Of a DNA stretch of 64,000 nucleotides, positions 17,720-62,688 are shown one piece after another. Source of the stretch: an uncultured Chthonomonadaceae bacterium (GTDB taxonomy: Bacteria; Armatimonadota; Chthonomonadetes; Chthonomonadales; CAJBBX01); contig CAYNFH010000003.1 in the NCBI GenBank assembly GCA_964396385.1, positions 12,178-76,177 on the forward strand, given 5' to 3'. Under the pieces are notes generated by a model. It saw only the letters and a list, made by a program, of their open reading frames with translations. It searched no databases and had not been told where the DNA came from. How positions within the stretch are numbered: position 1 is the first letter of the stretch; every line of letters starts with the position of its first letter. The translations under genes and the position numbers were made by a program.

Positions 17720-18011
17720 GCACGTGATCGCCAGGCGGACGCTCCGCGAGTTCTGGGAGCGGCATACGGACGCGGAGGACGCGCTCACTGCCTGGTATCA
17801 GGACGCCTCTAGGGCAACCTGGCGGACGCCTGATGACATCCGCGCCTTATATGCAACGGCCAGTTTCGTGCCTAACAACCGGGTCGTCTTCAACATTCGC
17901 GGGAATTCGTACCGTCTGGTCGTACACGTGGTGTATCGCACGGGACGCGTGTATGTCCGGTTCGTGGGCACGCACGCGGAATACGACCGAATCGACGCCG
18001 AGACCGTTTGA
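17718..18011 (+). CDS. higB: HigB-family mRNA interferase toxin
   Basis: MHVIARRTLREFWERH...FNIRGNSYRLVVHVVYRTGRVYVRFVGTHAEYDRI is typical of the HigB_toxin family. Confidence 0.85.
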   Translation: MHVIARRTLREFWERHTDAEDALTAWYQDASRATWRTPDDIRALYATASFVPNNRVVFNIRGNSYRLVVHVVYRTGRVYVRFVGTHAEYDRIDAETV

Positions 18012-18023
18012 CGGATAGGAACT

Positions 18024-38889: not shown

Positions 38890-39140
38890 TTCAAGATGAA
38901 CCAGACGCACAATAGATGCGCCCTCGGTCCCGTGAGACGGCAGTGGTGGATGATGGTACCGAAGGGGCGGAACGTCCTCGGCAGCAACGGGCGTGTCACG
39001 ACCGCAGCATTATACGCCGTGTCTGTTCTCTTGATGTCTCCTTAACTCCTCCGTATTAGAACCAGGCGTGTGTACGGGTTGGACGTACGGACCCTGCCTC
39101 CGGCCGAGCTACAATTCCGGTCCAGCTACTCTGGGCTCGG

Positions 39141-39884: not shown

Positions 39885-39914
39885 CTTCTATCTCCTTGAA
39901 TGCATGCTCGACGC

Positions 39915-45114: not shown

Positions 45115-45192
45115 GCGCGGCTCTTCGCGTGGCGTTTGGGCTATTCCTCGCCCCTTCCAGCCCTTTCGGAGGGATCTGCGCAAATGGGCCGG

Positions 45193-45216
45193 TTTCGGCA
45201 ACGCTTTCGGCAACGG
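45193..45216. promoter_or_regulatory. Tandem direct repeat TTTCGGCAACG(C/G) x2 in the divergent caspase-operon / CIS promoter region
   Basis: ggTTTCGGCAACGCTTTCGGCAACGGtgg, about 80 nt upstream of the first CIS gene. Confidence 0.4.
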
Positions 45217-45297
45217 TGGGCCTGTAGACTGGCCGTGGTCAGGACGCAAGAGCCCCTGAACGTCCGACAACGCCCTGGAAGGCAAAACGATCCGCCC

Positions 45298-46518: not shown

Positions 46519-46551
46519 CGCGGTTCCCTTTCTCGTTTGCAGGAGGACACG

Positions 46552-48405
46552 ATGCCTGAATACCTAGCACCCGGCGTATTCGTTGAAGAGATTGACAACG
46601 GCAGCAAGCCCATAGAAGGCGTGGGCACAAACACGGTCGCCTTCGTGGGCTTCGCGAAGAGCGGGGACTTCAACACCCCCACCTTTATCTCCAACTGGAC
46701 GCAGTTCTGCCAGAGCTTCGGCGAGGAGGAGAACGCGCTTGTTCGCGCCCTCTCCGACGAGCTGGGAATCACCGGCCCGGAGGTCGTAGCCGCCAAGCGC
46801 GCCTCGCGCAAAGGCTGGATAGAGTACGCGCAGACTGCGGTCCAGAGTGCTATCCGCGAGCGCCCGGCCAATGCCAAGGGTAGCAAGAGCTGGCAGGACT
46901 TCCTGCGCACCCACCAGATTCCCATGAGCGGCCTGCCATACGCGGAGGGCAGCTACCTGGCGCACACGGTCCGCGGCTACTACGACAACGGCGGAGGGCG
47001 CGCGTACATTGTGCGCATTCCACGCCGCCAGGATGTGGAGTCGCTGCTTTATAAGGTCAATGGCCAGGCCGACAGCAAGAAGCTGGCCCCGCCTCCACCA
47101 CTCACTATCGGTCCCTATACTTTCAAGGCCGCGAAGACCGCCGCAGACCCAGTTCAGATCGAGGTGGAGCACGTTGGGGACGGAGAGGAGTTCCGGATCA
47201 AGCTGTCTCAGGGCGACGCCTCGGAGTCCTATGGGTACGGCAAGGACAAGCCCTTGACTCCGGACGGGCTGGCCCAGGCGCTCACTCGCTCCAAGCTGGT
47301 GGACGTACAGACGGCGGACGCCGCCACCATGACGCGGCCGGAAGCTCGCATCTATACCATTGAGGCCGCGAGCCTCGTCCCGGTTGCTGCTTCCGGCGCA
47401 CCCGAGTCGCTCTCCGTCAGCGCGCTGGCAGCGCTCAAAGCGGAGGATTTCATTGGGGACGAGGCGCAGCGCACCGGCGTTAACGGGCTCGCGCTGCTGG
47501 ACGACGTCAACGCGGTCTGCGTGCCGGACCTCATGGCGGGCCTCTATCAGCGGCAGAGTGTAAACGGTAACGGCGGACCGGCGGTGGAGACGCTCGCACT
47601 GAACGACGCGCGCCGACAGGCGATCCTCGACGCTCAGTGCGCCGTGGTGGCCTATTGCGAGCGCTCCGCGGACCGAATGGCTATCCTGGACCCGCTGCCA
47701 GGATTGACGCCGCAGCAGATGCGCGACACCACGCTCAATACCCCCTATAACTGCGATCACGGCCAGGCGGCCATTTACTATCCCTGGATCAGGATCACGG
47801 ACCCGATGCGCCGGGGCCAGCAGATGATGTGCCCACCCTGCGGCCACGTGGCGGGCGTCTGGGTGCGGGCGGCGGTTGAGCGCGGAGTACACAAGGCACC
47901 GGCCAACGAGGCGCTGCTCGGAGCCGTGGCCCTGGAGGTGGGGATTACGAAGGGCGAGCAGGAGATCCTCAACCCGGAGGGCATCAATGCTATCCGTGCG
48001 TTCCCCGGCACCGGCATCCGCATCTGGGGCGCCCGTACGCTGGCGACCGTGGGCAACCCCTCCTGGAAGTACGTCAACGTCCGACGGTTGTTCAACTACC
48101 TGGAGAAATCCATGGAGCGCGGGCTCCAGTGGGTGGTCTTCGAGCCAAACGACTCGGACCTGTGGGGCCGGGTGCGCCGAAACATCGCCGCCTTCCTGTG
48201 GACCGAGTGGAAGGAAGGAAAGCTGTTCGGAACGACTGCGGCGGAGGCGTTCTACGTCAAGTGCGACTCGGAGACAAATCCCCAGGAGATGATCGATCTC
48301 GGCAGGCTGTACGTGGAGATCGGGGTCAACCCCGTCAAGCCGGCGGAGTTCGTGATTGTGCGCATCGGGCAGTGGTCGGCCAGCAGCAGCATCGCAGAAG
48401 CGTAG
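46552..48405 (+). CDS. Contractile tail sheath protein
   Basis: AGGAGG SD. MPEYLAPGVFVEEID is the canonical sheath N-terminus. Also GINAIRAFPGTGIRIWGARTL...NVRRLFNYLEKS...FVEF-type C-terminal motifs. Confidence 0.92.
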   Translation: MPEYLAPGVFVEEIDNGSKPIEGVGTNTVAFVGFAKSGDFNTPTFISNWTQFCQSFGEEENALVRALSDELGITGPEVVAAKRASRKGWIEYAQTAVQSAIRERPANAKGSKSWQDFLRTHQIPMSGLPYAEGSYLAHTVRGYYDNGGGRAYIVRIPRRQDVESLLYKVNGQADSKKLAPPPPLTIGPYTFKAAKTAADPVQIEVEHVGDGEEFRIKLSQGDASESYGYGKDKPLTPDGLAQALTRSKLVDVQTADAATMTRPEARIYTIEAASLVPVAASGAPESLSVSALAALKAEDFIGDEAQRTGVNGLALLDDVNAVCVPDLMAGLYQRQSVNGNGGPAVETLALNDARRQAILDAQCAVVAYCERSADRMAILDPLPGLTPQQMRDTTLNTPYNCDHGQAAIYYPWIRITDPMRRGQQMMCPPCGHVAGVWVRAAVERGVHKAPANEALLGAVALEVGITKGEQEILNPEGINAIRAFPGTGIRIWGARTLATVGNPSWKYVNVRRLFNYLEKSMERGLQWVVFEPNDSDLWGRVRRNIAAFLWTEWKEGKLFGTTAAEAFYVKCDSETNPQEMIDLGRLYVEIGVNPVKPAEFVIVRIGQWSASSSIAEA

Positions 48406-48430: not shown

Positions 48431-48865
48431 ATGGCTGAAGTGATTGGGGCATTGAGGTGGTACCTCGAAGTCGACGGCATAACGGAAGGAATCTTTCGGG
48501 AGGTGACGGGGCTCGATTCCGAGACGGAGGTGATCGAGCACCGGGTCACGGGCAAGAACGGCAACCTGATAGTCCACAAGGTGCCGGGTGCGCTCAAGTG
48601 GTCCAACGTCACCCTCCGCCGCGGAATTACGGACGACCGGAAGCTGCACGACTGGCGCAAAAAGATCGAGGACGGGCAGATCGAGGCGAACCGCAAGAAC
48701 GGGACGATCACCTGCTTCGCCCCGAACGGCGATGTAGTCGCAAAGTACTCGTTCAAGAAGGGCTGGCCGTGTAAGTGGCGGGGGCCGGGACTGGACGCCA
48801 CCAAGAACGAGTTGGCCATTGAAGAGCTGGAGCTGGCCCACGAGGGGCTGGAGCGCCAGCAGTAA
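48431..48865 (+). CDS. Tail tube protein (gp19/Afp1-like)
   Basis: FREVTGLDSETEVIEHR...KVPGALKWSNVTLRRGI...WPCKWRGPGLDA...IEELELAHEGL. Confidence 0.88.
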   Translation: MAEVIGALRWYLEVDGITEGIFREVTGLDSETEVIEHRVTGKNGNLIVHKVPGALKWSNVTLRRGITDDRKLHDWRKKIEDGQIEANRKNGTITCFAPNGDVVAKYSFKKGWPCKWRGPGLDATKNELAIEELELAHEGLERQQ

Positions 48866-48876
48866 TGAGGCCCTAG

Positions 48877-49221
48877 ATGAACAAGGCATCCGGCCTACAA
48901 ACCGAGTTCGAGTTCACCCTTCCTAAGGGATATGTGGGACCGGACGGTACGCTGCACCGGAAGGGCAGGATGCGCCTCGCCACGGCCATCGACGAGATCG
49001 CTCCGCTGCGGGATCCGCGCGTCCGCTCCAATGAGGCGTACCTGGTGATCATCCTGCTCGCCAGGGTGATCACCCAGCTAGGGACGCTCGACGGCATCGA
49101 CACCGGCGTGATCGAAGGGCTGTTTTCTGCCGACCTTGCCTACCTCCAGGACTTCTACCGGAAGATCAACGACGTGGATGGAGGTGAGGCCGCGGGGGAG
49201 GACGGCCAGACGGGGGAATAG
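48877..49221 (+). CDS. Tail-assembly-chaperone-like protein (P2 gpE-like)
   Basis: FEFTLPKGYVGPDGTLHRKGRMRLATAIDEIAPLRDPRV..., an acidic tail, and a position directly after the tube gene. Confidence 0.55.
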   Translation: MNKASGLQTEFEFTLPKGYVGPDGTLHRKGRMRLATAIDEIAPLRDPRVRSNEAYLVIILLARVITQLGTLDGIDTGVIEGLFSADLAYLQDFYRKINDVDGGEAAGEDGQTGE

Positions 49222-49386: not shown

Positions 49387-50012
49387 ATGGTGGCTGCAGT
49401 CGCCCATGCAAACGATCTGACGCTCGCCGCGACCACGGCCGTGCTCAAGAGCTTTCTGGAGAACGGCATGGTGGATCGCGGAGTGACAGCCAACGTAGGG
49501 GCCGGGGCGCTCGTCACTGCCCAGCCCCCGGACCGCGTGGAGACGGGTCCGGAGGAGAAGGCCCAGCTCAACCTATTCCTGTACCAGGTCAAGCCAAAAG
49601 GGATGGACTACGGGAGCCGCGCGTCTCCCGGCGAGGACGAGCGCTGGGTCTCCCGGGCCGCTGCGTTTGAGCTGAACTACCTGATCACCGCCTATGGCGG
49701 CGAAGACCTCCAGCCGGAGCTGCTGCTTGGCTTCGTAGTGGAAGCGTTCGCTGAGCGTCCGGTGCTGTGCGGCGACGTCATCGGGCCGGCGCTGGCGTTC
49801 GAGGGGCACGGCAAGCCCATGGCGCCAGGCTTCGCCGCCATGCGCAAGAGCGGCCTCGATAAGCGGCTGCGTGAGATACGAATGAACCTGCAAGCGCTCA
49901 CGCCGGATGAGATGTTCAACATCTGGTCCACCCTCCAGGCGACGTTCCGGCCATCGGTGGTGTACCGAGTCCAGGTCTTTCGGGACGGGGCAGCGCAGGA
50001 AGGATCGGAGCC

Positions 50013-50016
<4 letters not shown>
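49387..50016 (+). CDS. DUF4255 (Pvc16_N) domain protein
   Basis: LNLFLYQVKP... and FELNYLITAYGGEDL are DUF4255 hallmarks. Confidence 0.8.
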
Positions 50017-52031
<2,015 letters not shown>

Positions 52032-52053
52032 GCCCGGGTTGGGAGGTGGGCGG

Positions 52054-52617
52054 ATGGCAGGCAAGATAAAGGCAGGTCTCGTAGCGCCTCAGCGCGCGAC
52101 AACTCACGAAGGAGGGCCCGCACCTGCGCCCGCCGCCCGGGGCGCGCGCACTCCGGCGATCCACACGGCCGGAAAGGCCGAGCCAGGCTTTGGCCACAAC
52201 TTCGCCAACGTACAGGTGGCGGCGGAGCCGGATGTGGACGCGCCACCAAACGTGGTGCATCGGCGGGTGATGGAGGAGATGGAGCAATCCCTGGGCGGGG
52301 GTGGCGGCGGGATGGGTAGCGCTGCCTCCGGAATGCTGGCAGGGCTGGGCGGAGGCGGGCTGGGAAGCGCCGCTTCAGGGATCATGGCAGGTTTGGGCGG
52401 GCTCGGCTTGCCGGACCCGACCTTTGGCATGGCCGGCAAAGCCCTCTCCATGGGCCAGGACGCGGCCAGCACGCTGGGTGGCGCGGCGGCGCCGTACGCG
52501 GCGCCGTTCATGAATCCTCTGGGATCGCTCGCGGGTGCGGCCAGCGGTCTAGCGGGCTCCATCGGAGGTCAGCTTCCGGCACTCCCGAGCCTCGATCCCA
52601 GCTTATTGCTTATGTAG
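52054..52617 (+). CDS. Small Gly-rich protein carrying only the FGHxF..V.V leader motif of DUF4157 (eCIS cargo-type N-terminus)
   Basis: GGGAGG SD. EPGFGHNFANVQV, then repeats of GGLGSAASG(I/M)(M/L)AGLGG. Confidence 0.6.
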   Translation: MAGKIKAGLVAPQRATTHEGGPAPAPAARGARTPAIHTAGKAEPGFGHNFANVQVAAEPDVDAPPNVVHRRVMEEMEQSLGGGGGGMGSAASGMLAGLGGGGLGSAASGIMAGLGGLGLPDPTFGMAGKALSMGQDAASTLGGAAAPYAAPFMNPLGSLAGAASGLAGSIGGQLPALPSLDPSLLLM

Positions 52618-52650
52618 AAGCGGTAGGCGAGTACGGCGCAGGTTGAAGGC

Positions 52651-54912
52651 GTGAGGATGGAAACGAGGATTAGACGTCTCACCAGTCCAGGCGCACAAGC
52701 GGGGCCAGCTCACGGTCCGGCCGTCGCGGCGCGCGCCAGACCTGTCACCCGAGCATCCCGGCACGGCAGTCCCGACACCGTTCGCGCCACGGTAAGTGTC
52801 CCTTTCGGCCATGACTTTGGCCATGTGCACGTCCAGGCGGGAGCGGAGGCGGACGTTCACCGATGGCCGTTTGACGATGACAGCAGCAACAAGAGTCCCG
52901 GCATACTCGACAGCCTGGGGTCGATGGCTTCCGGAGCGTGGGATGCAACCAAGGCGGGCGCATCGGCTGTGGGTGGCGCGGCCTCAGGTGCTTACGATAA
53001 GTACCAGCAGATGACGGACACCAAGCCGGTAGCAGCCGGAGACGCCAAGATCGACTGGACCGGCAAGACCCCGATCTCGTGGACACAGGCCTTGGGCGCC
53101 GGCGTTGATTGGATGGAGAAGAAAGCGGGCGAGGGGCTGGATGCAGGGGCCAAGTCGGCGGAAGGCATTCCGGTTCTGGAGCAGCTTGCCGGCGCAGGGG
53201 CATTTGTGGGCAAGGGAATGACCAATCTTACGGGCGGGGTCATTCGAGGAGCCGGGGATATTGTCGGCGGAATCGAGAATGTCTTTGCCCATCCGATTGA
53301 CTCGGCGGCAGGGATCGAAGGCATTCTGGAGCACAACAGCACCATTCCCTTCATGGGCTCCACCCTCAAGGCCATCCACGGAGCGTACGACATCGCAACG
53401 GACAAGAAGAACGCGGAGTACGGCAACTCCTGGGGCGATCTGGCCAATCACGTCTTCAACCCCATGCAGCAGATGAAGGACGACCAGGCATTCGATTCCA
53501 ACCTGGCGCGGGGCATTGTGGCTCCGGGAACGAAGGACTGGGGCGATGCGTGGAACCACATCAAGCAGAATCCGGCGGATGCGTTTGGCCGCGCGGTGAC
53601 CAACATAGCGCCTATGGTGATGGGTTTGGGTGAAGCGGCAGGAGGGGAAGAAGCCGGGCAGGCTTCGAAAGGTCTGGCTGAACCGACTCCGAAGCCCCCG
53701 TCGGGCCCGCTTCCGGAACGGCTGCCTTTGCCTGAGCCAGCGCCGACGCCGGTAGAGATACCCAAGCCAATCGAGCCGCTGCCATCTCCTGGGGAGCCTC
53801 CTCCCTCATCCGCGCCTAGGTCGTCACCGCCGTCGACTCCGGAGCCGCCGGGTTCCGGTCCGCCGACCAAGCGCTATCCTGTTGGCCCGTCCGGAGAGCC
53901 GGAGCCTCCGGTGCCCGGTTGGAACGATCCGCCCTCATCGCGCCCGCCGTCGTCCGGGGAACCGCCTTCTTCCGGCAGCCCGCGCGCATCCGGGGAGCCG
54001 CCCACTTCCAGTAAGCCATCGACGTCCGGTGAGTCACCGGCCAGCGGAGGACCGGAGGGCGGGTCCAAGGGGACGAAGGGACAGCTCGATCAACGGCTTC
54101 AGAACATGCTGGACAACGACATCGATCCCCAGCAGCATCTGGGATACAGTTCGGAGGAGTGGAACCAGCTCCAGAAGGACGCCGCTTCCAATCCGGACAA
54201 GGCGCTTAAGGATCTGGACGCGCGGATGGACCGTCATGGGGTGCGTGCCGAGACATCCGCCGGCCCGGCCAGCGAACCAGAACCTCAACTGAAGGTTCCC
54301 GAAGTGCCGGACAACCCTCTGGACCTTCCGGAGTATCAGGCGGCGATAGAGGAAGCGCAGCAGAAGAAGATGTTTGAGCCGGCCAACCCAAAGAAGGCTC
54401 ACTACCAGGCAGGCGGCTCACAGACAAGCGGTTGGGCCGGCGCCGAGGACCAGGTCGACCGCGTGCTATCAGAGGCGCGCCAGGCCGGCTTCGATCCAGA
54501 GCCTCACCCGTTCGATCCGAAAGGCGAGCCTGGCAAGTACGGCGCTTCTCACGCCGAGGCGAAGGGCGTTGTCCAGGAGCCCGGCGTACCGGGCCAGGTA
54601 GATAAGCCAATGTGCGAAGAGAACTGTCGGCCGCTGGTGAAGGCCCTCGTCCAAGAAAATGGTGTACCTCAGGTTATCGCGGATCCGGATGCGACCCGCG
54701 TCTTCATGCCTGACGGCAGCGTGCATGAAGCCCCAGGCCCATCCGGCGAGCCGCCTAAGGCCACCTTTCCAACAGAACCGGGCGGGCAACCGCCGGCCGA
54801 CTTCTCGGATCTCACTGACAGCCCTCCGGAAGGGATGAAGGGCGTAAACGGGGATGATTGGGCAAAGGCTGTTGCGCAGTTGCGTGAGCAGCTCAAGAAT
54901 TCGGGCAGGTGA
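52651..54912 (+). CDS. DUF4157-leader cargo/effector with a conserved central module and a deaminase-like C-terminal domain
   Basis: VPFGHDFGHVHVQ leader. Central 220 aa are identical to the next gene. The C-terminus YGASHAEAKGVVQEPGVPGQVDKPMCEENCRPLVKALVQENG shows an HAE ... PxCxxC pattern. Alternative ATG at 52657. Confidence 0.75.
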   Translation: MRMETRIRRLTSPGAQAGPAHGPAVAARARPVTRASRHGSPDTVRATVSVPFGHDFGHVHVQAGAEADVHRWPFDDDSSNKSPGILDSLGSMASGAWDATKAGASAVGGAASGAYDKYQQMTDTKPVAAGDAKIDWTGKTPISWTQALGAGVDWMEKKAGEGLDAGAKSAEGIPVLEQLAGAGAFVGKGMTNLTGGVIRGAGDIVGGIENVFAHPIDSAAGIEGILEHNSTIPFMGSTLKAIHGAYDIATDKKNAEYGNSWGDLANHVFNPMQQMKDDQAFDSNLARGIVAPGTKDWGDAWNHIKQNPADAFGRAVTNIAPMVMGLGEAAGGEEAGQASKGLAEPTPKPPSGPLPERLPLPEPAPTPVEIPKPIEPLPSPGEPPPSSAPRSSPPSTPEPPGSGPPTKRYPVGPSGEPEPPVPGWNDPPSSRPPSSGEPPSSGSPRASGEPPTSSKPSTSGESPASGGPEGGSKGTKGQLDQRLQNMLDNDIDPQQHLGYSSEEWNQLQKDAASNPDKALKDLDARMDRHGVRAETSAGPASEPEPQLKVPEVPDNPLDLPEYQAAIEEAQQKKMFEPANPKKAHYQAGGSQTSGWAGAEDQVDRVLSEARQAGFDPEPHPFDPKGEPGKYGASHAEAKGVVQEPGVPGQVDKPMCEENCRPLVKALVQENGVPQVIADPDATRVFMPDGSVHEAPGPSGEPPKATFPTEPGGQPPADFSDLTDSPPEGMKGVNGDDWAKAVAQLREQLKNSGR
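52921..53546 (+). repeat. 626-bp segment 100% identical to 55544..56169 (copy 1)
   Basis: Compared by eye base-for-base. All six-frame track ORFs in the two segments are identical at offset 2623. Confidence 0.9.
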
Positions 54913-54976
54913 ACCCACGATGCGTCACAGATCGGGCCCCTGGAGGCTCGGGCAGTTGACTGAGAGAGGTTAGCCA

Positions 54977-57919
54977 ATGGGCGGGCGGGCGATGCGATCA
55001 TCCAAGCATGCCGAGGCACCGGGTCATGCGGAAGCGGTTCACACGGGAGTGCGTGACACCGTTCAGCAGGGCACGCGCGCCGGAGGCAGTCCGCTGCCGC
55101 ACGCCGCCCGGGTGAAGATGGAAGAGCGGTTTGGTCACGACTTCGGCCAGGTTCGCGTTCACGACGGACCGGATGCGAACCTCTCGGCGGATGGCCTAGC
55201 TGCCCATGCCTATACCGTTGGATCCGACATAGTGTTCAACCAGGGGAAATTCAATCCAGACAACGCGGACGGCGAGGAGATGCTGACGCACGAGCTGACG
55301 CACGTTATTCAGCAGGGCGGTCAATCCGCGGCCAGCGCGGGCGGCGAGCTGGAAATCAGCGACCCTTCCGATCCGGCGGAGCAAGAGGCGCATGAGCTGG
55401 CAAAGGAGATGCGGGGCGACGAGGATTCCGCAAGTCCTTCGGCCGCCCCGGCGGCTTCGGTCCATCGCTGGCCCTGGGATGACGACGATAAGAAGAGTGG
55501 AGGCGGCGGAGGCAGCAGCCCCGGCATACTGGACAGCCTGGGCTCGATGGCTTCCGGAGCGTGGGATGCAACCAAGGCGGGCGCATCGGCTGTGGGTGGC
55601 GCGGCCTCAGGTGCTTACGATAAGTACCAGCAGATGACGGACACCAAGCCGGTAGCAGCCGGAGACGCCAAGATCGACTGGACCGGCAAGACCCCGATCT
55701 CGTGGACACAGGCCTTGGGCGCCGGCGTTGATTGGATGGAGAAGAAAGCGGGCGAGGGGCTGGATGCAGGGGCCAAGTCGGCGGAAGGCATTCCGGTTCT
55801 GGAGCAGCTTGCCGGCGCAGGGGCATTTGTGGGCAAGGGAATGACCAATCTTACGGGCGGGGTCATTCGAGGAGCCGGGGATATTGTCGGCGGAATCGAG
55901 AATGTCTTTGCCCATCCGATTGACTCGGCGGCAGGGATCGAAGGCATTCTGGAGCACAACAGCACCATTCCCTTCATGGGCTCCACCCTCAAGGCCATCC
56001 ACGGAGCGTACGACATCGCAACGGACAAGAAGAACGCGGAGTACGGCAACTCCTGGGGCGATCTGGCCAATCACGTCTTCAACCCCATGCAGCAGATGAA
56101 GGACGACCAGGCATTCGATTCCAACCTGGCGCGGGGCATTGTGGCTCCGGGAACGAAGGACTGGGGCGACGCGTGGAACCACATCAAGGAAAACCCGATG
56201 GATGCGCTCGGGCGGGCAGGGACGAACGTGCTGCCCATGGTCATGGGGATGGGCGAAGCGGGGGCCGGAGAGGCCGCAGGGGAAGGCAGCGGAGCAGCCA
56301 GGGCCGCGGGTGAGGGAGGCGCGGGCGCTGGAGCCAAGACGTTGCCCGGACTCGGACCGCCCGGTCCGCCCGTGAAGACGCTTCCCGGATTGGGACCTCC
56401 TGGCCCAGAACTGCCAGTCCCGGTGGAGGCTCCTTCTGTACCGAAAGCGCCTTCGGGCGGCGTCCCCGAGCCCGCCGTGGCGCCGGCCGAAGCGCCAGTA
56501 GCGCCCTCCGAGCCCGCCCCAGCGGCGCCACGGCCCAAGGCCAATGTAGAGATCAACGCGAACGTGGCCAAACCCGGTCAGGGCAACGTACAGATTATAA
56601 AGAACATCCTCGAGAAGCCGCCCGGCGAGGCGCCTGGTGTTCCGCCGACGGAGCGCGGTCCGCTGACTTCGCCTGCCGCGGAGAGTGTCCCCCCTCCAAC
56701 CGAGGCCGTGCCTACGGTCCGCGAGCCTCACGTAGTCAACCCGAGCGGCGAGCCCGTGGTGGTAAACCCCAACGCGCCCTTCTTTGCGGACCCGGGCGAC
56801 CCCACGGTTCATCCGCTGGAATCACCCGCGGCCAAGAGCCTGCCCGCGCCTCCCACGGTGCCGGATCCCGCTACAATTCCGGGGCCCCTTGACGTCCCCC
56901 CAGCCACCGTGCCGGATCCACCCACTCTTCCCGGCCTTGGGCCAAAGACGCTTCCGGGACTCGGGGTTCCAGGCCCCGAGCTGCCGTCGGCCATCAGCCA
57001 GCTCGATCCCGCTCTGTTCGAGCCGGCGCCCGTCACACCGAAGGTACCCTCGCGGCCGCCGGGAGTTCCTGCGCCCGAGCCGTTCAATCCGGATATCCCG
57101 GTGATTGAGCCGGAGCCCCCGACAGGTCCACCTCGGCCGGCGCCGGCCCCCGAGCCGCCAGCGCCAAACATCCACGAGGCGCCGAGCCATGTGCCAAGCG
57201 GAGAGCCCAGCAGCAACGCCTTCTCGCATGGCAGGCTCGAACCGTTCAGGCACGTGCCGGAGCCCAGCGTTCCGCCGGGATTTGAAAACGTGCCGCGGCC
57301 GTTCCCTGCCCCGCGAGAGCCGGTCCCCCTGCCGGACCAGACTCCTTCCCTGGGTTCCGTTCCGGATCCGGCGACCATTCCACCGGAACGGCCCCCAAAT
57401 ACGGTGGTGCAAGAGCCCCAGTCAACGCTTCCATCCAGCTCCGGGCCCTCAAGCAGCTCGAGTTTCCCGGAAGTGCCTTCGTTCCCGAGCTCCGAGTTCC
57501 CGGCACCCACCATCCCGGACGGGCCGCCGACTATCAGGGAGCCTGACTTTAGCCCGAAGCCTCCGGGGGCCCCCATCGCCCCGGAGCCGATCCCGAAGCT
57601 GCCAGGCGGCCCCAAAGAGGGACCTCCGATCCCGCGCGAGGAACCGCTGTCGCGCCCGGCAGACACGCCGCGTCAACCGATCGATATACCGGGCTCCATA
57701 CCGCCGCCGCCCGACACAATACCCGACGGACCAATCACGCAGGATGCTCCGTCCTCATCGGGCAGCGAGACGCCGACGCTGCGCGGGCTGGGAGGCGTGC
57801 CGGCCATACCGCGCGGGTTTGATCCGGGCGCCTTGATCCAGCTCATGCTCGACACTCCGGGCGCTGGAAGCGTTGTCGAACTGATGCAGCAGCTCGGCAT
57901 GCCCACGCGACGCGCCTGA
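54977..57919 (+). CDS. Full DUF4157 (zincin HExxH) cargo/effector with the shared central module and a ~580-aa Pro-rich C-terminal region
   Basis: LPHAARVKMEERFGHDFGQVRVHDG...AHAYTVGSDIVFNQGKF...EEMLTHELTHVIQQ. KTLPGLGPPGP repeats. GAGAGG SD. Confidence 0.85.
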   Translation: MGGRAMRSSKHAEAPGHAEAVHTGVRDTVQQGTRAGGSPLPHAARVKMEERFGHDFGQVRVHDGPDANLSADGLAAHAYTVGSDIVFNQGKFNPDNADGEEMLTHELTHVIQQGGQSAASAGGELEISDPSDPAEQEAHELAKEMRGDEDSASPSAAPAASVHRWPWDDDDKKSGGGGGSSPGILDSLGSMASGAWDATKAGASAVGGAASGAYDKYQQMTDTKPVAAGDAKIDWTGKTPISWTQALGAGVDWMEKKAGEGLDAGAKSAEGIPVLEQLAGAGAFVGKGMTNLTGGVIRGAGDIVGGIENVFAHPIDSAAGIEGILEHNSTIPFMGSTLKAIHGAYDIATDKKNAEYGNSWGDLANHVFNPMQQMKDDQAFDSNLARGIVAPGTKDWGDAWNHIKENPMDALGRAGTNVLPMVMGMGEAGAGEAAGEGSGAARAAGEGGAGAGAKTLPGLGPPGPPVKTLPGLGPPGPELPVPVEAPSVPKAPSGGVPEPAVAPAEAPVAPSEPAPAAPRPKANVEINANVAKPGQGNVQIIKNILEKPPGEAPGVPPTERGPLTSPAAESVPPPTEAVPTVREPHVVNPSGEPVVVNPNAPFFADPGDPTVHPLESPAAKSLPAPPTVPDPATIPGPLDVPPATVPDPPTLPGLGPKTLPGLGVPGPELPSAISQLDPALFEPAPVTPKVPSRPPGVPAPEPFNPDIPVIEPEPPTGPPRPAPAPEPPAPNIHEAPSHVPSGEPSSNAFSHGRLEPFRHVPEPSVPPGFENVPRPFPAPREPVPLPDQTPSLGSVPDPATIPPERPPNTVVQEPQSTLPSSSGPSSSSSFPEVPSFPSSEFPAPTIPDGPPTIREPDFSPKPPGAPIAPEPIPKLPGGPKEGPPIPREEPLSRPADTPRQPIDIPGSIPPPPDTIPDGPITQDAPSSSGSETPTLRGLGGVPAIPRGFDPGALIQLMLDTPGAGSVVELMQQLGMPTRRA
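55544..56169 (+). repeat. 626-bp segment 100% identical to 52921..53546 (copy 2)
   Basis: See copy 1. Confidence 0.9.
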
Positions 57920-57977
57920 CGGGGATCACGTTCAGACAACTTGTGAAGACGCGGCGGAGTGAAGGAGCAGATGAGCC

Positions 57978-58268
57978 TTGGCAGCCGGTGAAGCGGAAGA
58001 GGAGGAGGCTGGCGTAAGCCAGCAGCGCGAGCAGCGGGCTCCGACTCCCGCCCTTGTCTTCGCGATTCCAGCGAAGACCGCGGCCTCCGAGGGGCCGGCC
58101 GCCCCATCGCAAACTGCAACCGAGGATCGAGGGGCAGCCGCCAAGCAGGGCTCCGGCGCGGCACCGGGGCAGGCGGATCCGCGCGCGGTGGCGGACCGTG
58201 TGTACGAGCTGATGCGGGAAGAAATGGAGCATTCGGTGCTCCGCGGGATGCGGCGGCGGGGATGGTGA
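57978..58268 (+). CDS. Small acidic/Ala-rich protein whose C-terminal motif is shared with the 1043-aa protein
   Basis: TTG start 10 nt after GGAG. C-terminus AVADRVYELMREEMEHSVLRGMRRRGW compares with LLATEVWSILKRRLEIEGERRGRR. Confidence 0.4.
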   Translation: MAAGEAEEEEAGVSQQREQRAPTPALVFAIPAKTAASEGPAAPSQTATEDRGAAAKQGSGAAPGQADPRAVADRVYELMREEMEHSVLRGMRRRGW

Positions 58269-58281
58269 GACGGAAGAGCTG

Positions 58282-58313
58282 GTGTTCAGGTGTTCAGGTC
58301 TTCAGGTGTTCAG
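58282..58313. repeat. Tandem octamer block, 4 x GTGTTCAG, between CIS genes
   Basis: gtgttcag gtgttcag gtcttcag gtgttcag. Confidence 0.8.
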
Positions 58314-58343
58314 GAACAGAAACGGGGAGGGGCTTAGCAGACG

Positions 58344-58823
58344 ATGTTAGTTGCCACACGTCCTTCGTCCAACGGCAGCCAGGCGCCGGCGGAGCAGCCG
58401 AGATCAAAGGACCCGCATCTGGGGCTGCGGTTCTGGGTGCAGCTCGGCCAGGTGGAGGTGGCGGGCTTTCAGGAGTGCTCCGGCCTGGAGATTGAAACCG
58501 AGGTCTTCGAGTACCGCGAGGGCGGCCTGAACACCTATGTCCACAAGCTGCCTGTGCGCGCCAAGTACAAGAACATCACTCTCAAACGCGGCCTGGACGA
58601 GAACCAGGACCTCTATAGCTGGTACGTCAAGGCCATGAACAACGACATGGGCCGGCAGAACATCTCCATCATCGTCTATGACTCGCTCGGCAAGCAGGTG
58701 GAGAAGTGGGACCTCCAGCGGGCATGGCCGTGCAAATGGACGGGACCCGAGCTAAAGGCTGAACACGGGGCGGTCGCGGTGGAGACGGTCGAGATAGCCC
58801 ACGAGGGACTGCTGCCCCGGTAA
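58344..58823 (+). CDS. Second tail tube-family protein (Afp5/Pvc5-like)
   Basis: FQECSGLEIETEVFEYREGG...KLPVRAKYKNITLKRGL...WPCKWTGPELKA...VETVEIAHEGL, parallel to the first tube protein. Confidence 0.85.
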   Translation: MLVATRPSSNGSQAPAEQPRSKDPHLGLRFWVQLGQVEVAGFQECSGLEIETEVFEYREGGLNTYVHKLPVRAKYKNITLKRGLDENQDLYSWYVKAMNNDMGRQNISIIVYDSLGKQVEKWDLQRAWPCKWTGPELKAEHGAVAVETVEIAHEGLLPR

Positions 58824-58869: not shown

Positions 58870-61800
58870 ATGCGTAAGGAAGCCCAGCCGGCGGCAATGC
58901 TGAAGGTTCCGCTGTCCGTCCGCCGGACGGCGGCGTTCGGCCGCATGGTAGCCGGCCGCGTGGGGAGCACGTGGAGTCCCGTGGCGGCACGCGTCAGGAT
59001 GCTCTCCCGGACCTCACGCGCGCGCCTGGCCGGCTGGCGGTTGGACCGGCTGGCGTCCTGGACCAACCCATTCCTCCATGGGTTCATAACGCGCGGCATG
59101 AGCCGTTTTGGCTTGCTGGAGCGGGCGCGCCCCGCCCTCGACCTCTATCTGTCCAGACCGGCCATCCCGATGGTCTCCTGGCTCGGAGTGGCGGCGCCGC
59201 AGCCGGAGCGTTTCGAGCCGGAGCCGTTCGAGCTTTCTCGGAGCTTCGGCTCGCCAGGAGCATATACAGCGGCAGGGGCCGCGGACAGTACAAGAGGCGG
59301 CCCGGTGGGGCTGCCGATCCGGGCGGCGCTCCCGGCCCGGATGAGACCTGCACCTGCTCCGGAAGGACAAGCGGTCTTGCCGAGGGATGTAGGAGTGCGG
59401 CCCTTCGCGCCACATAGCGTCTCGAGCCCCCAGGGCGCCCTGCGCCATGGGCAGGGTGCGCATCTCCGGACGAGCCTCGCCAGCCAGATCGCGCGCTCCC
59501 ACCGCCTGATTACGCGCGCGCCGGTGCGCAGCTCACATGTCGCGGCAGCCCTGAAGTCTGGCACGAATCCGTCGCGACCTGTGGTGCGGGCGCCGTCCTC
59601 ACGGGTCCACCGCTCCGCAGGTATGGCGTCGGTTCGGGGCGGAATCGCGCCTCCGCGGCTGGCCGCACCCAGCATCCTTCGGGGCCGCGGACTTCCGCGT
59701 CCCGTGACGCCCGCCGGGCAGGTCGGGTCCGTTGCGGCGCGAACTCGCCCGAGACAGGACCATGCGGCCGGCAAGCGGATTCTGCCACGCGGCCAAACCG
59801 GGCATCCTTCTACGCTCGCATTCCTGCCCCTCAGCGCGAGTCCTACGGCGGCGCCGGACGCGACTCCGGACGGGAGCCCTTTCCGGCACCGCCCGCAGCC
59901 GGACTCAGCAGATTCCCCGTCGCTTCGCGGCACTGAGCATCTGGCGGAGATGGGCGAGATACGGGGCCAGAGTCTGGAGGGCGCGCCAGGCGCTGCCCTG
60001 CCATTCCCAGAAGGATTGAGCAGGATCCTGGCCTTTGTGAACGGGCAGGTCCCCCGCGCGGCCGGATCGAGCGGGCCTGTGATGGAGAACCGCAGCGGCG
60101 GGGTTAAAGAGTCTGGGCGCGGATCGGAAGGGCTACTACGCCGCCGAGGAGAGCTGCCTGTCCTCGGGATGACAGATCGCGGCTTCGCGCGGTCTGGAGG
60201 TACGGGAGAGTTGCGGGAAGCAAAGCAGGTCCCTCCCAGTGTCCTGCCCTCTGCGCACCGCGCATTCACCCGCCTGGAGATGGCAAGTCGCTACGATAGA
60301 TACTCTGGAGGCACAGCGTTCAAATCGGCAGGCGGCCAGGTCCCTCGATTCCCCGGGATAACAAGTTGGTACGTTCCGGTCCTCTCGCATACGGCGTCGC
60401 ACTTGCCCCATGGGGTTCCTCGGAACAGCCCGCACGGCGCGGCGATCCTGGATCCGCGCGAGGCCGGCGGCATCGCACCGAGGTTGTTGAAGAACGTAAC
60501 GCAGGGTGGAGGCGGCAAGCCGGGCCAATCAGCTCTGGTGTCGCGCGCAGTGGCCGCACCGCGGGTTCCGGGACTCCATATTGTGGCCCGTGCCCCGCGG
60601 CTGACTCCCGGGCCGGCCGCCAGCCGAGTGACCCGATCAATCGGCGCGGCAAGGGCTTCCGGGCTGGATGCGCCGCCGCCGCCGAGGACGCCACAGAAGC
60701 AGACGGTGGCGCACCGGCAGGGAGCAATCGGACCGATGGCGGCCGTGGTCGCCCGGCGATACCCGGCGCTCGCGGATAGAGCTCCGGAGCATGCGGTGGT
60801 ACGGCCGGTGATACGGCCATTCCTGGCGGAGATATGGGCAAAGAGCGACGGAGTGACGCGAGCGATTCGGGGGCCGGGTCCGCGCAGACCCGATCTTCGA
60901 AGTGGAGATGGGGCCACCTTCACGCCAGCTCGTGCGTGGGAGTCGAGGCCGGACCCTGCAGTTGACGGCTTCTTACCACTCTCAATCCCGAGTCACGGCC
61001 TTTGGACCCAGGCAGACGTGCCAGACCCGGTTGACGCGGGCTGGCAAAGCTCGGCGCATGGCCCTGCGAAACCAGTCACCGCGTGGACAATAGGTCCGCA
61101 GCCGGAGGCAGTTCGGCAGCGACCGACCGGACCAGCGCGGTCCGCTCCCGTACGGCCGGTCGGCACGCCGCGGGTAATGCGCTCCGCGCGCGGCGTCGCG
61201 ACCAGACCGACCCAATCTCCTGCGCCCGCTGCATCGAGATCGGCGCGTTCGCGAAGCGCCATTCCCGACCTGAGGAGCCGCCTTTCGCCAGCACTGGCGC
61301 GGCTCGTGACCAGCCGTGCACAGCGCGGTGGACATGCGGACCCGGCGGTAGCCCCGGTTTTCTCCTCCCCTCTGATGGCGGCAGGTGGCGGGAGAACAGT
61401 CGGGCTGCCGGCTCAACTTTCCGCACACATACTCGGGCCGCCCCGGCGCCTGCCGAAAATCGGCGAATCGCCTAAGCCAACCGGCGCTTCGCTCCCGATA
61501 GCCCGTGGCCCGACGCGACCGCAGCCGTTCCCAGACCTGGTCACCGGAGAGTCCGCACCGGCAACCAGGCCGATCGGGCGGCGGGACCGGGCTAATGTTA
61601 TGTTGGTGGACTCCTTGAAGCCGGCACACAGCCTACCGGCTATGGCAGAGCGCCTGCCCATGGCACCGGTCGGAGCAGCGCGTCCGACCGGTGCCAAATC
61701 GGCCGGAACGACCGGTGAGACAGTCGCGCGGACGCCCGGAATATCGGCCCGCGCTGCGGCGCCCGCATTATGGATGCCGACCCTGCCCGCCCTTTCCCGC

Positions 61801-62001
61801 GCTCGGCAGAAGGCAATTCCCGTAGTGCAGCGGGAGGCGTCCGAGTCGCCGGCGCCTACCGGGAGCAAGGCGCATTCGGCCGAGGCGGCCAAGGGCGATA
61901 CGGGCGACGCGGCCAACCAGGTGCAACTTCTGGCTACGGAGGTGTGGTCTATCCTGAAGCGGCGTCTGGAGATAGAGGGCGAGCGCCGGGGTCGGCGGTG
62001 A
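58870..62001 (+). CDS. 1043-aa Arg/Pro/Ala/Ser-rich low-complexity protein; positional candidate for tail-length (tape-measure-like, Afp14-type) protein
   Basis: Uninterrupted 3.1-kb ORF between the tube-2 and LysM genes. Only the C-terminal 25 aa look ordered. Confidence 0.55.
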   Translation: MRKEAQPAAMLKVPLSVRRTAAFGRMVAGRVGSTWSPVAARVRMLSRTSRARLAGWRLDRLASWTNPFLHGFITRGMSRFGLLERARPALDLYLSRPAIPMVSWLGVAAPQPERFEPEPFELSRSFGSPGAYTAAGAADSTRGGPVGLPIRAALPARMRPAPAPEGQAVLPRDVGVRPFAPHSVSSPQGALRHGQGAHLRTSLASQIARSHRLITRAPVRSSHVAAALKSGTNPSRPVVRAPSSRVHRSAGMASVRGGIAPPRLAAPSILRGRGLPRPVTPAGQVGSVAARTRPRQDHAAGKRILPRGQTGHPSTLAFLPLSASPTAAPDATPDGSPFRHRPQPDSADSPSLRGTEHLAEMGEIRGQSLEGAPGAALPFPEGLSRILAFVNGQVPRAAGSSGPVMENRSGGVKESGRGSEGLLRRRGELPVLGMTDRGFARSGGTGELREAKQVPPSVLPSAHRAFTRLEMASRYDRYSGGTAFKSAGGQVPRFPGITSWYVPVLSHTASHLPHGVPRNSPHGAAILDPREAGGIAPRLLKNVTQGGGGKPGQSALVSRAVAAPRVPGLHIVARAPRLTPGPAASRVTRSIGAARASGLDAPPPPRTPQKQTVAHRQGAIGPMAAVVARRYPALADRAPEHAVVRPVIRPFLAEIWAKSDGVTRAIRGPGPRRPDLRSGDGATFTPARAWESRPDPAVDGFLPLSIPSHGLWTQADVPDPVDAGWQSSAHGPAKPVTAWTIGPQPEAVRQRPTGPARSAPVRPVGTPRVMRSARGVATRPTQSPAPAASRSARSRSAIPDLRSRLSPALARLVTSRAQRGGHADPAVAPVFSSPLMAAGGGRTVGLPAQLSAHILGPPRRLPKIGESPKPTGASLPIARGPTRPQPFPDLVTGESAPATRPIGRRDRANVMLVDSLKPAHSLPAMAERLPMAPVGAARPTGAKSAGTTGETVARTPGISARAAAPALWMPTLPALSRARQKAIPVVQREASESPAPTGSKAHSAEAAKGDTGDAANQVQLLATEVWSILKRRLEIEGERRGRR

Positions 62002-62040
62002 TTGCGGCTCTGCGGCGCTTCCTGGCACGGAGAACGAGAC

Positions 62041-62688
62041 ATGGGACTTACGAAAGCTACCATCACAAACCTGGAAACGAACGAGCAGATTTCGTGCAAG
62101 TTCAACCCCACCGAGTACACGATTAACAAGGAGAACTCCTGGAAGAGCAAGCCGGTGGTGGGAAAGAACGTGCCCAAGCTGGAGTTCACGGGCGGTGGCG
62201 CGCAGATACTGACCATGGAGCTCTTCTTCGACGCCCACGAGGATAAGGGCGATGTCCGCGTCGATGTGAAGAAGCTGATGGCGCTCACCCTCATCCACCC
62301 GAAGCCGAAGAACGACAAGACCAAGCGCTCGCGGCCACCCCTATGCATCTTCCAGTGGGGACCCAACTGGGAGTTCAAGGCGGCCGTCACCAAGCTTTCG
62401 GTCAAGTACACGCTCTTCCATCAAGACGGCACGCCTGTCAGGGCGACGGCCAACATTACCTTCCAGGAGGCGGAGGACGAGAAGGAGCAGAAGAAGACCA
62501 ACCCCACCTCCTACTCGGAGCCCGGCCGCAAGCGTAGGGAGGTCCGGCCGCACGATACCCTGGCGCTGATCGCCTTTGAGGAGTTCGGCGACCCCACCTT
62601 GTGGCGGCAGATCGCCGATGAGAACCGGCTGGACGACCCCCTCTCGCTGCATGCCGGCCAGATCATCTCTATCCCGCCGCGCGCGTAA
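62041..62688 (+). CDS. Tube-initiator-like protein with a C-terminal LysM domain (Afp7/Pvc7-like)
   Basis: FNPTEYTINKENSWK...LEFTGGGAQILTMELFFD is tube-fold-like. LysM region is HDTLALIAFEEFGDPTLWRQIADENRLDDPLSLHAGQIISIP. Confidence 0.8.
   Translation: MGLTKATITNLETNEQISCKFNPTEYTINKENSWKSKPVVGKNVPKLEFTGGGAQILTMELFFDAHEDKGDVRVDVKKLMALTLIHPKPKNDKTKRSRPPLCIFQWGPNWEFKAAVTKLSVKYTLFHQDGTPVRATANITFQEAEDEKEQKKTNPTSYSEPGRKRREVRPHDTLALIAFEEFGDPTLWRQIADENRLDDPLSLHAGQIISIPPRA

Follow-up and report, generated by a model that had tools for sequence, protein, structure and literature searches.

Recombination and concerted evolution, as well as orphan C-terminal cassettes, are features of the Rhs, CdiA, MafB, and T6SS effector arrays. 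The polymorphic design of PVC/eCIS toxins has been known since 2012 (PMC3482391). Those with an N-terminal PVC-metallopeptidase are also named EATs (PMC3482391; PMC8213781; PMC11297309), and one of them, EAT11, is an already validated DUF4157-deaminase (EAT class: PMC3482391; PMC8213781; PMC11297309). In PVC-metallopeptidase toxins, a constant N-terminus recombines with variable C-termini (PMC3482391, section 13; PMC8213781), and the overwriting of part of one gene by another through recombination is expected in toxin families like these. Cgo1 and Cgo2 of AlgoCIS have a common disordered N-terminus, followed by DUF4157 and by different C-terminal domains (PMC8894135; 10.64898/2026.05.27.728243); their loading signal is the N-terminal region, and DUF4157 is dispensable for loading (PMC8894135; PROCIS preprint 10.64898/2026.05.27.728243). 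Tme, from the CIS of Streptomyces davawensis, is a tape-measure-related DUF4157 effector (PMC11126660).

Here, we describe two tandem genes of an eCIS operon, gene 1 (52651-54912, plus strand) and gene 2 (54977-57919, plus strand), that are identical over an internal tract of 626 bp. We propose that they are diverged eCIS toxin/cargo paralogs in which this tract was very probably homogenized by a very recent non-allelic gene conversion. The pair is carried by one assembly only, on a 77,945-bp NCBI contig, and was analyzed within a window, i.e., the whole 64-kb stretch of DNA under study. Judged by sequence, both genes are PVC/eCIS-type polymorphic toxins (DUF4157 EATs). The original prediction had called them analogous to polymorphic toxins; the kinship stands, yet it is not mere analogy, as they are members of the PVC-metallopeptidase class (PMC3482391; PMC8213781).

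The operon reads on the plus strand throughout. Upstream of the two genes it encodes a sheath (46537-48405), a tube (48431-48865), a tail-assembly-chaperone-like protein (48877-49221), a Pvc16_N protein (49387-50016), and an AAA+ ATPase (50013-52031), all assigned by Pfam and PHROG 508. Downstream follow a second tube protein (58344-58823) and a CIS_tube+LysM protein (62002-62688), both assigned by Pfam, and between them a 1043-aa low-complexity ORF (58870-62001) that is a candidate tape measure. The two genes are thus surrounded by a sheath gene, two tube genes, two Pvc16_N genes, an AAA+WHD ATPase, and CIS_tube+LysM, and are placed mid-operon with the AAA+ ATPase on one side and the second tube gene on the other. 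The small neighboring ORFs had no match in NCBIfam or PHROGs, and no immunity gene is adjacent to either gene.

Base-by-base comparison yielded a maximal exact run of 626 bp between 52921-53546 (copy 1) and 55544-56169 (copy 2, the likely donor), both on the plus strand, at an offset of 2623 as originally claimed; the same pair was returned by a repeat search of the window. Each copy lies in frame 0 of its own ORF and encodes the same 208 aa, which agrees with the proposed central module of ~208 aa and forms the core of that module. If every base matched with a probability of 72%, the identity of the flank, an unbroken run of 626 matches would have a chance of ~1e-89. The near-identical flanks of ~25 bp that had been noted are present as such on the 5' side, where 27 nt (52894-52920 in copy 1, 55517-55543 in copy 2; plus strand) include three mismatches (52896, 52908, 52920), whereas the 3' edge consists of a single mismatch at 53547 and 18 identical bases after it. 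All four edge mismatches are synonymous and fall on third codon positions. A search of the genome for further copies of the module had also been suggested; the part covered, the 64-kb window, holds none elsewhere.

Outside these edges, identity falls and homology continues. The diverged 3' flank, which is the end of the module, aligns between 53547-53661 of copy 1 and 56170-56284 of copy 2 (both plus strand) with 71% nucleotide identity (82/115), so that homology runs to ~53661; its 39 codons include 15 without any change, 13 with a synonymous difference, and 11 with a non-synonymous one, and the consensus AWNHIK.NP.DA.GRA.TN..PMVMG.GEA is common to both genes. Upstream of the 27-nt flank, an indel is followed by homologous motifs present in both genes (VHRWP[FW]DDD and FGHDFG.V.V) and by homologous N-terminal leaders (36% identity over 55 aa, E=3e-6). 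Hence the two genes are not unrelated beyond the flanks, contrary to what the original prediction had stated; it is only the halves 3' of the 3' flank in which we found no significant similarity. Between gene 1 and gene 2, third-position identity rises from 50% in the 3' flank to 99.5-100% within the tract. In comparison to orthologs of other genera the same values are 30-51% for the flank and 43-49% for the tract, and over its whole length the tract region matches orthologs at only ~65% of bases, its third positions being saturated. These alignments identify genes 1 and 2 as old, diverged paralogs.

Very recent gene conversion is the reading that we favor because the zero-divergence tract sits in homologous sequence with saturated synonymous sites. 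The tract is 100% identical between homologous, far less identical sequence on both sides, and the drop in divergence includes synonymous sites, which excludes selection at the protein level. The very recent conversion or recombination that had been proposed is thereby substantiated (third positions 50% identical in the flank versus 100% in the tract). Homologous recombination without crossover would have let one old copy overwrite the 626-bp middle of the other, i.e., the core of the module between the leader/zincin on one side and the Pro-rich linker with the variable C-terminus on the other. Gene 2 was probably the donor, a direction we infer from sequence because full-architecture orthologs of gene 2 exist in other genomes. 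We recovered no closely related locus that carries this tandem pair and from which the form of gene 1 before conversion could be read directly. The event probably followed from tandem orientation and residual homology and would not require an adaptive value. As a consequence, the two identical direct repeats might now serve as RecA substrate, by which the 2.6-kb unit with the deaminase cassette could be deleted or amplified.

A profile scan of genomes, based on a 7-sequence alignment, detected six loci and a metagenome scan with the module three; none of these contains a tandem ortholog pair like genes 1 and 2. Three loci (L001, L003, L008) do encode two module genes each, with only 33-36% amino acid identity to the module subtype of the window. 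No high-identity DNA tract was found between the paired genes in these three loci, which suggests that homogeneous paralogs are not the norm. Moreover, the two modules within L003, and likewise within L001, belong to very different subtypes, which speaks against any selection for module identity.

Could the identity have been created by assembly or polishing, either as a false tandem duplication or by collapse of differing copies into one consensus? An exact repeat of 626 bp exceeds short-read k-mers and most insert sizes, and its source is one contig of one NCBI assembly, probably also a MAG given that the relatives of genes 1 and 2 all derive from MAGs; perfect interior identity could then partly stem from bubble-popping or cross-copy polishing. 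The original warning of an assembly-collapse hazard is reasonable. Nevertheless, we consider such an artefact improbable. The unique gene 1-gene 2 junction at 54912-54977, together with four flanks that are unique and distinct, would leave the tandem path as the only one, and a strain mixture would not be expected to yield a junction of the gene 1 C-terminus with the gene 2 N-terminus. Copies that truly differ by ~30% have no common k-mers and are hence not collapsible. At both edges, where the sequence is uniquely anchored, it takes only a few bases for identity to jump from ~71% to 100%, so the contrast is real even with a few interior SNPs lost. It is unlikely that the tandem order is an assembly error, while a few interior SNPs between the copies may have been collapsed in the assembly.

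Fusions build polymorphic toxins (PMC3482391), and the C-terminal halves of genes 1 and 2 are unrelated, as they would be if a copy of the gene 2 module had newly been inserted into, or fused with, an unrelated gene to give gene 1. Such a fresh insertion would show abrupt non-homologous junctions. Instead, the tract has old homologous sequence on both sides, with the module end at 71% nucleotide identity and saturated third positions downstream, and VHRWPFDDD, FGHDFG, and the homologous leader (E=3e-6) upstream in gene 1, which renders fresh shuffling very improbable. Selection on the 626 bp at the DNA level, in the form of an antisense gene, a structured RNA, or a DGR template/variable repeat pair, has a probability close to negligible. 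Long minus-strand ORFs do cover the tract (52984-53559, 52992-53447), but antisense ORFs like these are commonplace in DNA of 65% GC, a search of 52000-58400 against Rfam returned no match at E<=1, and an identity of only ~65% to orthologs with saturated third positions implies that there is no nucleotide-level constraint. A DGR pair was rejected because such repeats differ at adenines, in contrast to 0 differences over 626 bp here. An origin from a mobile element or MITE was dismissed in view of a tract that is coding and in frame and has homologs in equivalent positions elsewhere, and plain duplication in view of an identity confined to the tract, with flank third positions at 50%. Gene conversion between old paralogs thus remains our preferred explanation.

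Gene 2 (980 aa by ORF list and Pfam, identical to public P0004) is composed of a leader, a full eCIS_core/DUF4157 zincin, the module, ~500 aa of Pro-rich sequence, and a 55-aa C-terminus. Its eCIS_core domain (PF13699, formerly DUF4157/PVC-metallopeptidase; aa 39-116; 55091-55324, plus strand) matches Pfam at E=1.7e-29 and 102 bits versus a cutoff of 22, with HExxH present as HELTH, and so bears out the full DUF4157 that had been assigned. The Pro-rich character predicted for the C-terminal region applies to ~500 aa, whereas the end of the protein is a conserved 55-aa element (…GFDPGALIQLMLDTPGAGSVVELMQQLGMP…; 57749-57916, plus strand) that homolog alignments recovered at 50-82% identity in P0009, P0020, P0050, P0019, and loci L001, L003, and L004. 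Beyond the module, gene 2 has no match in Pfam, NCBIfam, or PHROGs. Orthologs with the full architecture are P0009, L001, L003, and L004, and gene 2 orthologs were found among MAGs of Gemmatimonadota and Chloroflexota.

Gene 1 comprises 753 aa from GTG 52651 in the ORF list, with an alternative start at ATG 52657 that has an SD-like GAAGG upstream, and is ordered as leader, edges of eCIS_core only, module, Pro-rich linker, and SsdA-like deaminase. The public gene call (P0005, 662 aa) begins at ATG 52924, three bases into the repeat, and the homologous leader is therefore missed. Protein and DNA alignments, together with the leader homology (E=3e-6), place an eCIS_core remnant at 52804-52881 (plus strand), with FGHDFGHVHVQ from 52804 and VHRWPFDDD at 52855-52881. 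Relative to gene 2, ~97 aa are missing in-frame, HExxH among them, such that only FGHDFGHVHV and VHRWPFDDD are kept of the zincin domain. The short leader ascribed to gene 1 is really a zincin-deleted form of the N-terminus of gene 2.

The C-terminus of gene 1 includes SsdA_C (PF24120; aa 593-638; 54427-54564, plus strand) at E=4.6e-9 and 37.2 bits versus a gathering cutoff of 27, in accordance with the deaminase-like domain of the original prediction. The motifs GASHAEAKG (SHAE) and PMCEENC (C-E-E-N-C) are present, and from the family match and the zinc-binding signature we predict an SsdA-like (BaDTF2-type) deaminase toxin. A homolog, P0070, has this deaminase cassette in common with gene 1 (~aa 478-699 of gene 1, 52% identity) and carries it after a module whose subtype is very different; the cysteines are spaced as C-x3-C in gene 1 and as C-x2-C in P0070. 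A metagenome scan with the toxin half of gene 1 detected no locus. The alignments portray gene 1 as a lineage-specific paralog that has lost the zincin core and carries a deaminase cassette. That gene 1 could still be a cargo fits the analogy with AlgoCIS, because DUF4157 is dispensable for loading there, and a zincin loss would thus be compatible with a cargo function.

The module itself is a ~250-aa conserved domain between DUF4157 and the toxin linker and represents a domain family with 349 cluster representatives at E<=1e-3. It had no match in Pfam, NCBIfam, or PHROGs, and its predicted structure no analogue in PDB or BFVD. Structure prediction, one of the checks originally proposed, resulted in an all-alpha fold with AF2 (pLDDT 78, 127-sequence alignment), while a 4-sequence alignment gave a useless model (pLDDT 36). 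The sequence is acidic and Ala/Gly-rich, with a net charge of -12. eCIS_core precedes the module in 47 of 81 scanned relatives, and the domains behind it in these 81 include EndoU (3), SsdA_C (2), Tox-MPTase5 (1), and Ntox30 (1), with most C-termini unannotated; the tail of P0003 is HNH-like. Toxin classes downstream of the module in relatives thus include EndoU, deaminase, metallopeptidase, and HNH. The modular arrangement of leader, module, and swappable C-terminus that had been postulated from two genes holds at family level, as seen from the eCIS_core-fronted 47/81, the varied C-termini, and the P0070 cassette on another subtype.

We place the module in the half of these proteins that is constant and would relate to delivery; it may have a role in loading or delivery, perhaps as the adaptor for tube-lumen loading that had been suggested originally. 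Invariant D/E/H/K/R residues (HP.D, EH, K..HG.YD, DD, GR) hint at a putative binding or catalytic site. Three leads were treated as compositional only, namely Pfam Senescence (5/25 members, best E=2e-5), Dicistro_VP4 (2/25 members, E=5e-4), and PDB VP4 chains around GIPVLEQLA (E=0.27); each was absent in 10 further full-length members. Membrane insertion found no support, with a maximum 19-residue hydropathy of 0.91 and a net charge of -12. It is intriguing, albeit doubtful, to propose that the module is the functionally decisive delivery domain of a large DUF4157 eCIS toxin subclass and that the direct repeats act as a built-in recombination switch. If so, the deaminase cassette would be gained or lost through RecA-mediated deletion or amplification of the 2.6-kb unit, and leaders would be paired anew with C-termini.

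Recombination has long been inferred to shape PVC/eCIS polymorphic toxins, and this locus offers a clean and datable record of it, with a tract that is bounded to the base, lies between two full-length cargo genes, and covers neither peptidase nor toxin. The helical domain it exposes is a more useful result than the conversion itself. How DUF4157 cargo regions work and what governs loading and release are relevant to the engineering of eCIS delivery tools, and the module is a concrete candidate for deletion, swapping, and pull-down experiments. The repeat is also a warning to annotators and assemblers.

Comparison with described systems places the two genes as follows. Like SsdA, a single-strand DNA deaminase toxin on which Pfam defined SsdA_C, gene 1 has a C-terminus above the SsdA_C gathering score with an H-A-E motif and a Cys pair; the match is limited to the C-terminal subdomain, the cysteines are spaced as C-x3-C (C-x2-C in P0070), and gene 1 is located in an eCIS operon. 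Gene 2 resembles Tme in its N-terminal DUF4157, its very long, mostly disordered body, and its location upstream of tube-initiator and baseplate genes (PMC11126660). Tme differs in that it ends in an endonuclease and is predicted to have transmembrane helices (PMC11126660), whereas in gene 2 we found no Pfam domain past eCIS_core and, for the module as the sole part profiled, no TM-like segment; tape-measure homology was not detected (PHROGs; BFVD E>1). For AlgoCIS, in contrast to the window, neither a common middle domain nor DNA-level identity of Cgo1 and Cgo2 has been described (PMC8894135; 10.64898/2026.05.27.728243).

As in the Rhs, CdiA, MafB, and T6SS arrays, a constant sequence common to neighboring toxin genes is the recombination substrate and C-termini differ. 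[quoted passage not shown] The genes depart from EATs in that they are positioned mid-operon and not at the operon 3' end, gene 1 is without the zincin core, and gene 2 has no recognizable toxin but only a 55-aa conserved C-terminus. In addition, they carry the ~250-aa helical domain between zincin and linker, which has no mention in the eCIS papers compared (PMC3482391; PMC8213781; PMC11297309). With EATs they share the location in an eCIS operon, the N-terminal DUF4157 zincin of gene 2, the long linker before the C-terminus, C-terminal toxins that vary across relatives, and the lack of an adjacent immunity gene, a frequent trait of such toxins.

Two tandem cargo genes of an extracellular contractile injection system (eCIS) on the plus strand, gene 1 (52651-54912, an ORF of 753 aa) and gene 2 (54977-57919, 980 aa), share an exact repeat of 626 bp. 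Base-by-base comparison at an offset of 2623 gave a maximal exact run of 52921-53546 and 55544-56169, as originally predicted, and the same pair was returned by a repeat finder. Both copies are in frame 0 of their ORFs and encode the same 208 aa, the predicted central module. The edges of this tract are sharp (final 5' mismatch at 52920, initial 3' mismatch at 53547), and the four mismatches nearest to them (52896, 52908, 52920, and 53547) are all synonymous and at third positions. At 72% identity, a run of 626 matches would arise by chance with a probability of about 1e-89. The genes had been described as unrelated beyond flanks of about 25 bp, but homology continues on both sides of the tract. 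The 3' flank is homologous to about position 53661 with 71% nucleotide identity (82/115), its 39 codons being identical (15) or differing synonymously (13) or non-synonymously (11). On the 5' side, past a small indel, both genes encode VHRWP[FW]DDD and, further up, FGHDFG.V.V; their leaders share 36% identity over 55 aa (E=3e-6). It is only the halves beyond the 3' flank that lack significant similarity to each other.

Third codon positions of gene 1 and gene 2 are 50% identical in the 3' flank versus 99.5-100% in the tract, a contrast that supports the proposed very recent gene conversion or recombination. Third-position identity to orthologs in other genera is 30-51% in the 3' flank and 43-49% within the tract. 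The flanks of the two genes are hence no closer to each other than to other genera, so that at synonymous sites the paralogs are about as old as these genus-level splits. Selection at the protein level could not have removed differences at synonymous sites, a duplication of recent date would lack saturated homologous flanks, and fresh insertion of a domain is expected to leave non-homologous junctions, whereas the flanks here are homologous. It is unlikely that the tract reflects partial assembly collapse, with a repeat interior of, for example, 99% rather than 100% identity. Both copies are known from a single assembly, and SNPs deep inside the repeat could be collapsed by an assembler or polisher; the tandem order, however, is fixed by four distinct unique flanks together with a unique junction between gene 1 and gene 2, which a strain mixture is unable to create. 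Because the sequence at both edges is uniquely anchored and identity there rises from 71% to 100% over just a few bases, the contrast is real even if a few interior SNPs were collapsed. The best explanation, which we regard as probable, is that two ancient tandem paralogs of the DUF4157 eCIS polymorphic-toxin class recently underwent ectopic gene conversion.

Gene 2 is the likelier donor as judged from sequence comparison, since orthologs with its full architecture exist and the deaminase cassette of gene 1 (~aa 478-699) is also found in the homologous protein P0070 behind a very different module subtype. Homogeneity of paralogs is not the norm. Three related loci have two convergent module genes each, the second being an eCIS_core and module gene on the minus strand (L001 12317-13984, L003 5329-7611, and L008 ~11065-11727). 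One module copy of these loci shares 64% and the other 33-36% protein identity with the module of the window, and no high-identity DNA tract was found between the two genes in any of the three. Evidently, two cargos can share one machine without identical modules. In the window, the two direct repeats of 626 bp, 2,623 bp apart, would be an efficient substrate for RecA-dependent deletion. Such a deletion would remove the deaminase cassette and the gene 2 zincin and leave the gene 1 leader, the module, and the C-terminal half of gene 2; amplification could occur equally well.

Gene 2 encodes a full eCIS_core domain (PF13699, formerly DUF4157 or PVC-metallopeptidase; Pfam E=1.7e-29) with a HELTH motif, as expected for one of the two genes, followed by the module, about 500 aa rich in proline, and a C-terminus of 55 aa. 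The anticipated Pro-rich C-terminal region is therefore present, but the protein ends in a short conserved element (57749-57916, GFDPGALIQLMLDTPGAGSVVELMQQLGMP). This element is 50-82% identical in the homologs P0009, P0020, P0050, and P0019 and in loci L001 (11853-11966), L003 (5025-5192), and L004 (2836-3000). Homologs that share it derive from Gemmatimonadota and Chloroflexota MAGs, and their preceding Pro-rich regions differ greatly in length. The element had no match in the libraries searched and, instead of being a toxin, could serve as a tail for anchoring or for binding a partner.

In gene 1, the zincin is reduced to its two edges by an in-frame deletion of about 97 aa including HExxH; next come the module, a linker rich in proline, and an SsdA_C deaminase domain (Pfam E=4.6e-9, 37.2 bits versus a cutoff of 27; SHAE and Cys pair present), in line with the predicted deaminase-like C-terminus. 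Its leader, predicted to be short, indeed lacks a full zincin, but is homologous to that of gene 2 and keeps the zincin edges. Many other members of the module family also lack the zincin and proceed from a leader via a (V/I)QR(D/W)..DD junction to the module; the architecture of gene 1 is thus a normal variant and not a sign of decay. Public proteins from a single NCBI contig of 77,945 bp match gene 2 (P0004, identical) and gene 1 (P0005, shorter). P0005 starts at an internal ATG at 52924, three bases inside the repeat, and leaves out an in-frame leader of 91 aa that is homologous to the gene 2 leader. Candidate starts of gene 1 are 52651 and 52657, and an SD-like GAAGG upstream of ATG 52657 resembles the GAGAGG preceding gene 2. 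This resemblance and the homology of the leader speak for the long form of gene 1 rather than the call at 52924. Both genes have their closest relatives in Gemmatimonadaceae, Gemmatimonadales, and a single Chloroflexota MAG, on which grounds the window would probably come from Gemmatimonadota.

The module has no matching model in Pfam, NCBIfam, or PHROGs. Word-indexed searches retrieved few relatives; an exhaustive profile search returned 349 cluster representatives at E<=1e-3, of which 244 reached E<=1e-10, although about six of the top 150 profile matches hit only an HNH tail contributed to the profile by one seed sequence. Among the best 81 matches, 47 encode eCIS_core upstream of the module, and downstream domains are EndoU (3), SsdA_C (2), Tox-MPTase5 (1), and Ntox30 (1), most C-termini being unannotated. 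By its position, the module would belong to the constant, delivery-related half of the protein. Its alignment contains eight invariant residues, given as four Gly, two Pro, one His, and one Lys, plus Asp, and the recurring motifs GIPVL, TGG..KG, HP.D, EH, LK..HG.YD, NP, DD, and GR. An AlphaFold2 model based on a 127-sequence alignment is all-helical with 11 helices (mean pLDDT 78, pTM 0.65; mostly >80 in core residues 60-245), and Foldseek searches of PDB and BFVD with this model found no convincing analogue (best E 0.6, TM-scores <=0.26). The module is acidic (net charge -12), contains 32% Ala+Gly, and has no TM-like segment. Around GIPVLEQLA (~53180-53210), weak similarity was observed to dicistrovirus VP4 (Pfam Dicistro_VP4, E=5e-4, 2/25 module members; PDB 7bc3_D, E=0.27) and to the Senescence domain (5/25 members, best E=2e-5). 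These matches are not significant overall, are possibly compositional, and serve as leads only.

Further features were observed at the related loci. The gene 2 ortholog of L001 (10001-12133; ENA ERZ25039556 contig_31022) is broken across three reading frames, with shifts near 11170, right at the module end, and 11470, and is either a pseudogene or affected by indel errors of long-read assembly. In L003, genes for PAAR and Pvc16_N are directly upstream of the gene 2 ortholog, and the second gene has a long Gly/Ala/Ser-rich insertion ahead of the module core. L002 of a Gemmatimonadaceae MAG encodes a full eCIS_core, module, and Pro-rich gene (9452-11647) whose neighbours resemble housekeeping genes or hydrolases and whose surroundings lack eCIS genes for 10 kb in both directions, which suggests orphan cargo genes sited away from the machine. 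L005 of a Gemmatimonadales MAG has direct repeats, in tandem or close together, shortly after the module gene (11085-11382 and 17017-18074; 91% identity over 190 bp at an offset of 108 bp, and 84% over 452 bp), which may represent repeats of the linker or a further pair of paralogs.

The window is chromosomal DNA with 65% GC that also encodes NAD synthase, cytochrome bd oxidase, and aldo/keto reductases. The eCIS operon starts with Pvc16_N+CarboxypepD_reg, sheath, tube, a tail-assembly-chaperone-like protein, a second Pvc16_N, and an AAA+ ATPase, and continues with a small Gly-rich ORF, gene 1, gene 2, a small ORF, a second tube, a low-complexity ORF of 1043 aa, and CIS_tube+LysM. Both Pvc16_N (DUF4255) genes are on the plus strand (45136-46518 and 49387-50016), the former fused to CarboxypepD_reg/prealbumin-like domains. 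Directly 3' of the ATPase gene, a plus-strand ORF of 192 aa (52039-52617) without Pfam, NCBIfam, or PHROG match encodes GFGHNFANVQV ... VVHRR, resembling the zincin-less 'mini eCIS_core' edges of gene 1 (blastp E=0.002 to the gene 1 leader), and then a stretch rich in glycine that contains a tandem repeat of 48 bp (52299-52400); these similarities may make it a third member of the leader family, smaller than the other two. The plus-strand ORFs of 96 aa (57978-58268, …VADRVYELMREEMEHSVLRGMRRRGW) and 1043 aa (58870-62001, …VQLLATEVWSILKRRLEIEGERRGRR) have similar C-termini. The latter is weakly coding-like (codon-position GC 0.72/0.64/0.72) and located just upstream of the CIS_tube+LysM gene, the place expected for a tape-measure-like protein. 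Upstream of the operon, minus-strand genes (35896-45741) for a BTAD+NB-ARC/STAND+TPR regulator, two Peptidase_C14 (caspase-like)+DUF4384 proteins, and a LysM+SH3+NlpC/P60 hydrolase may serve the eCIS as a module for regulation and for lysis or release.

The proposed design of leader, constant module, and swappable C-terminus is supported, but was already established in the earlier PVC-metallopeptidase/DUF4157 literature, and the two genes are members of this toxin class rather than mere analogues. The definition of PVC-metallopeptidase toxins as polymorphic goes back to Zhang et al. [quoted passage not shown] Geller et al. 2021 (PMC8213781) made DUF4157 a core marker of eCIS, noted very long linkers, and validated the DUF4157-deaminase EAT11. 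New are the recent conversion event resolved to the base, its coverage of the middle domain and neither the peptidase nor the toxin junction, and the uncatalogued middle domain itself; the interest of the finding rests mainly on this conserved helical domain without earlier description. In AlgoCIS, the loading signal is a disordered N-terminal region and DUF4157 is dispensable (PROCIS preprint 10.64898/2026.05.27.728243), which would be compatible with loading of the zincin-less gene 1 product. Gene 2 is loosely similar to the DUF4157 effector of Nagakubo et al. 2024 (PMC11126660), which has a long disordered body and binds the spike and the tube initiator.
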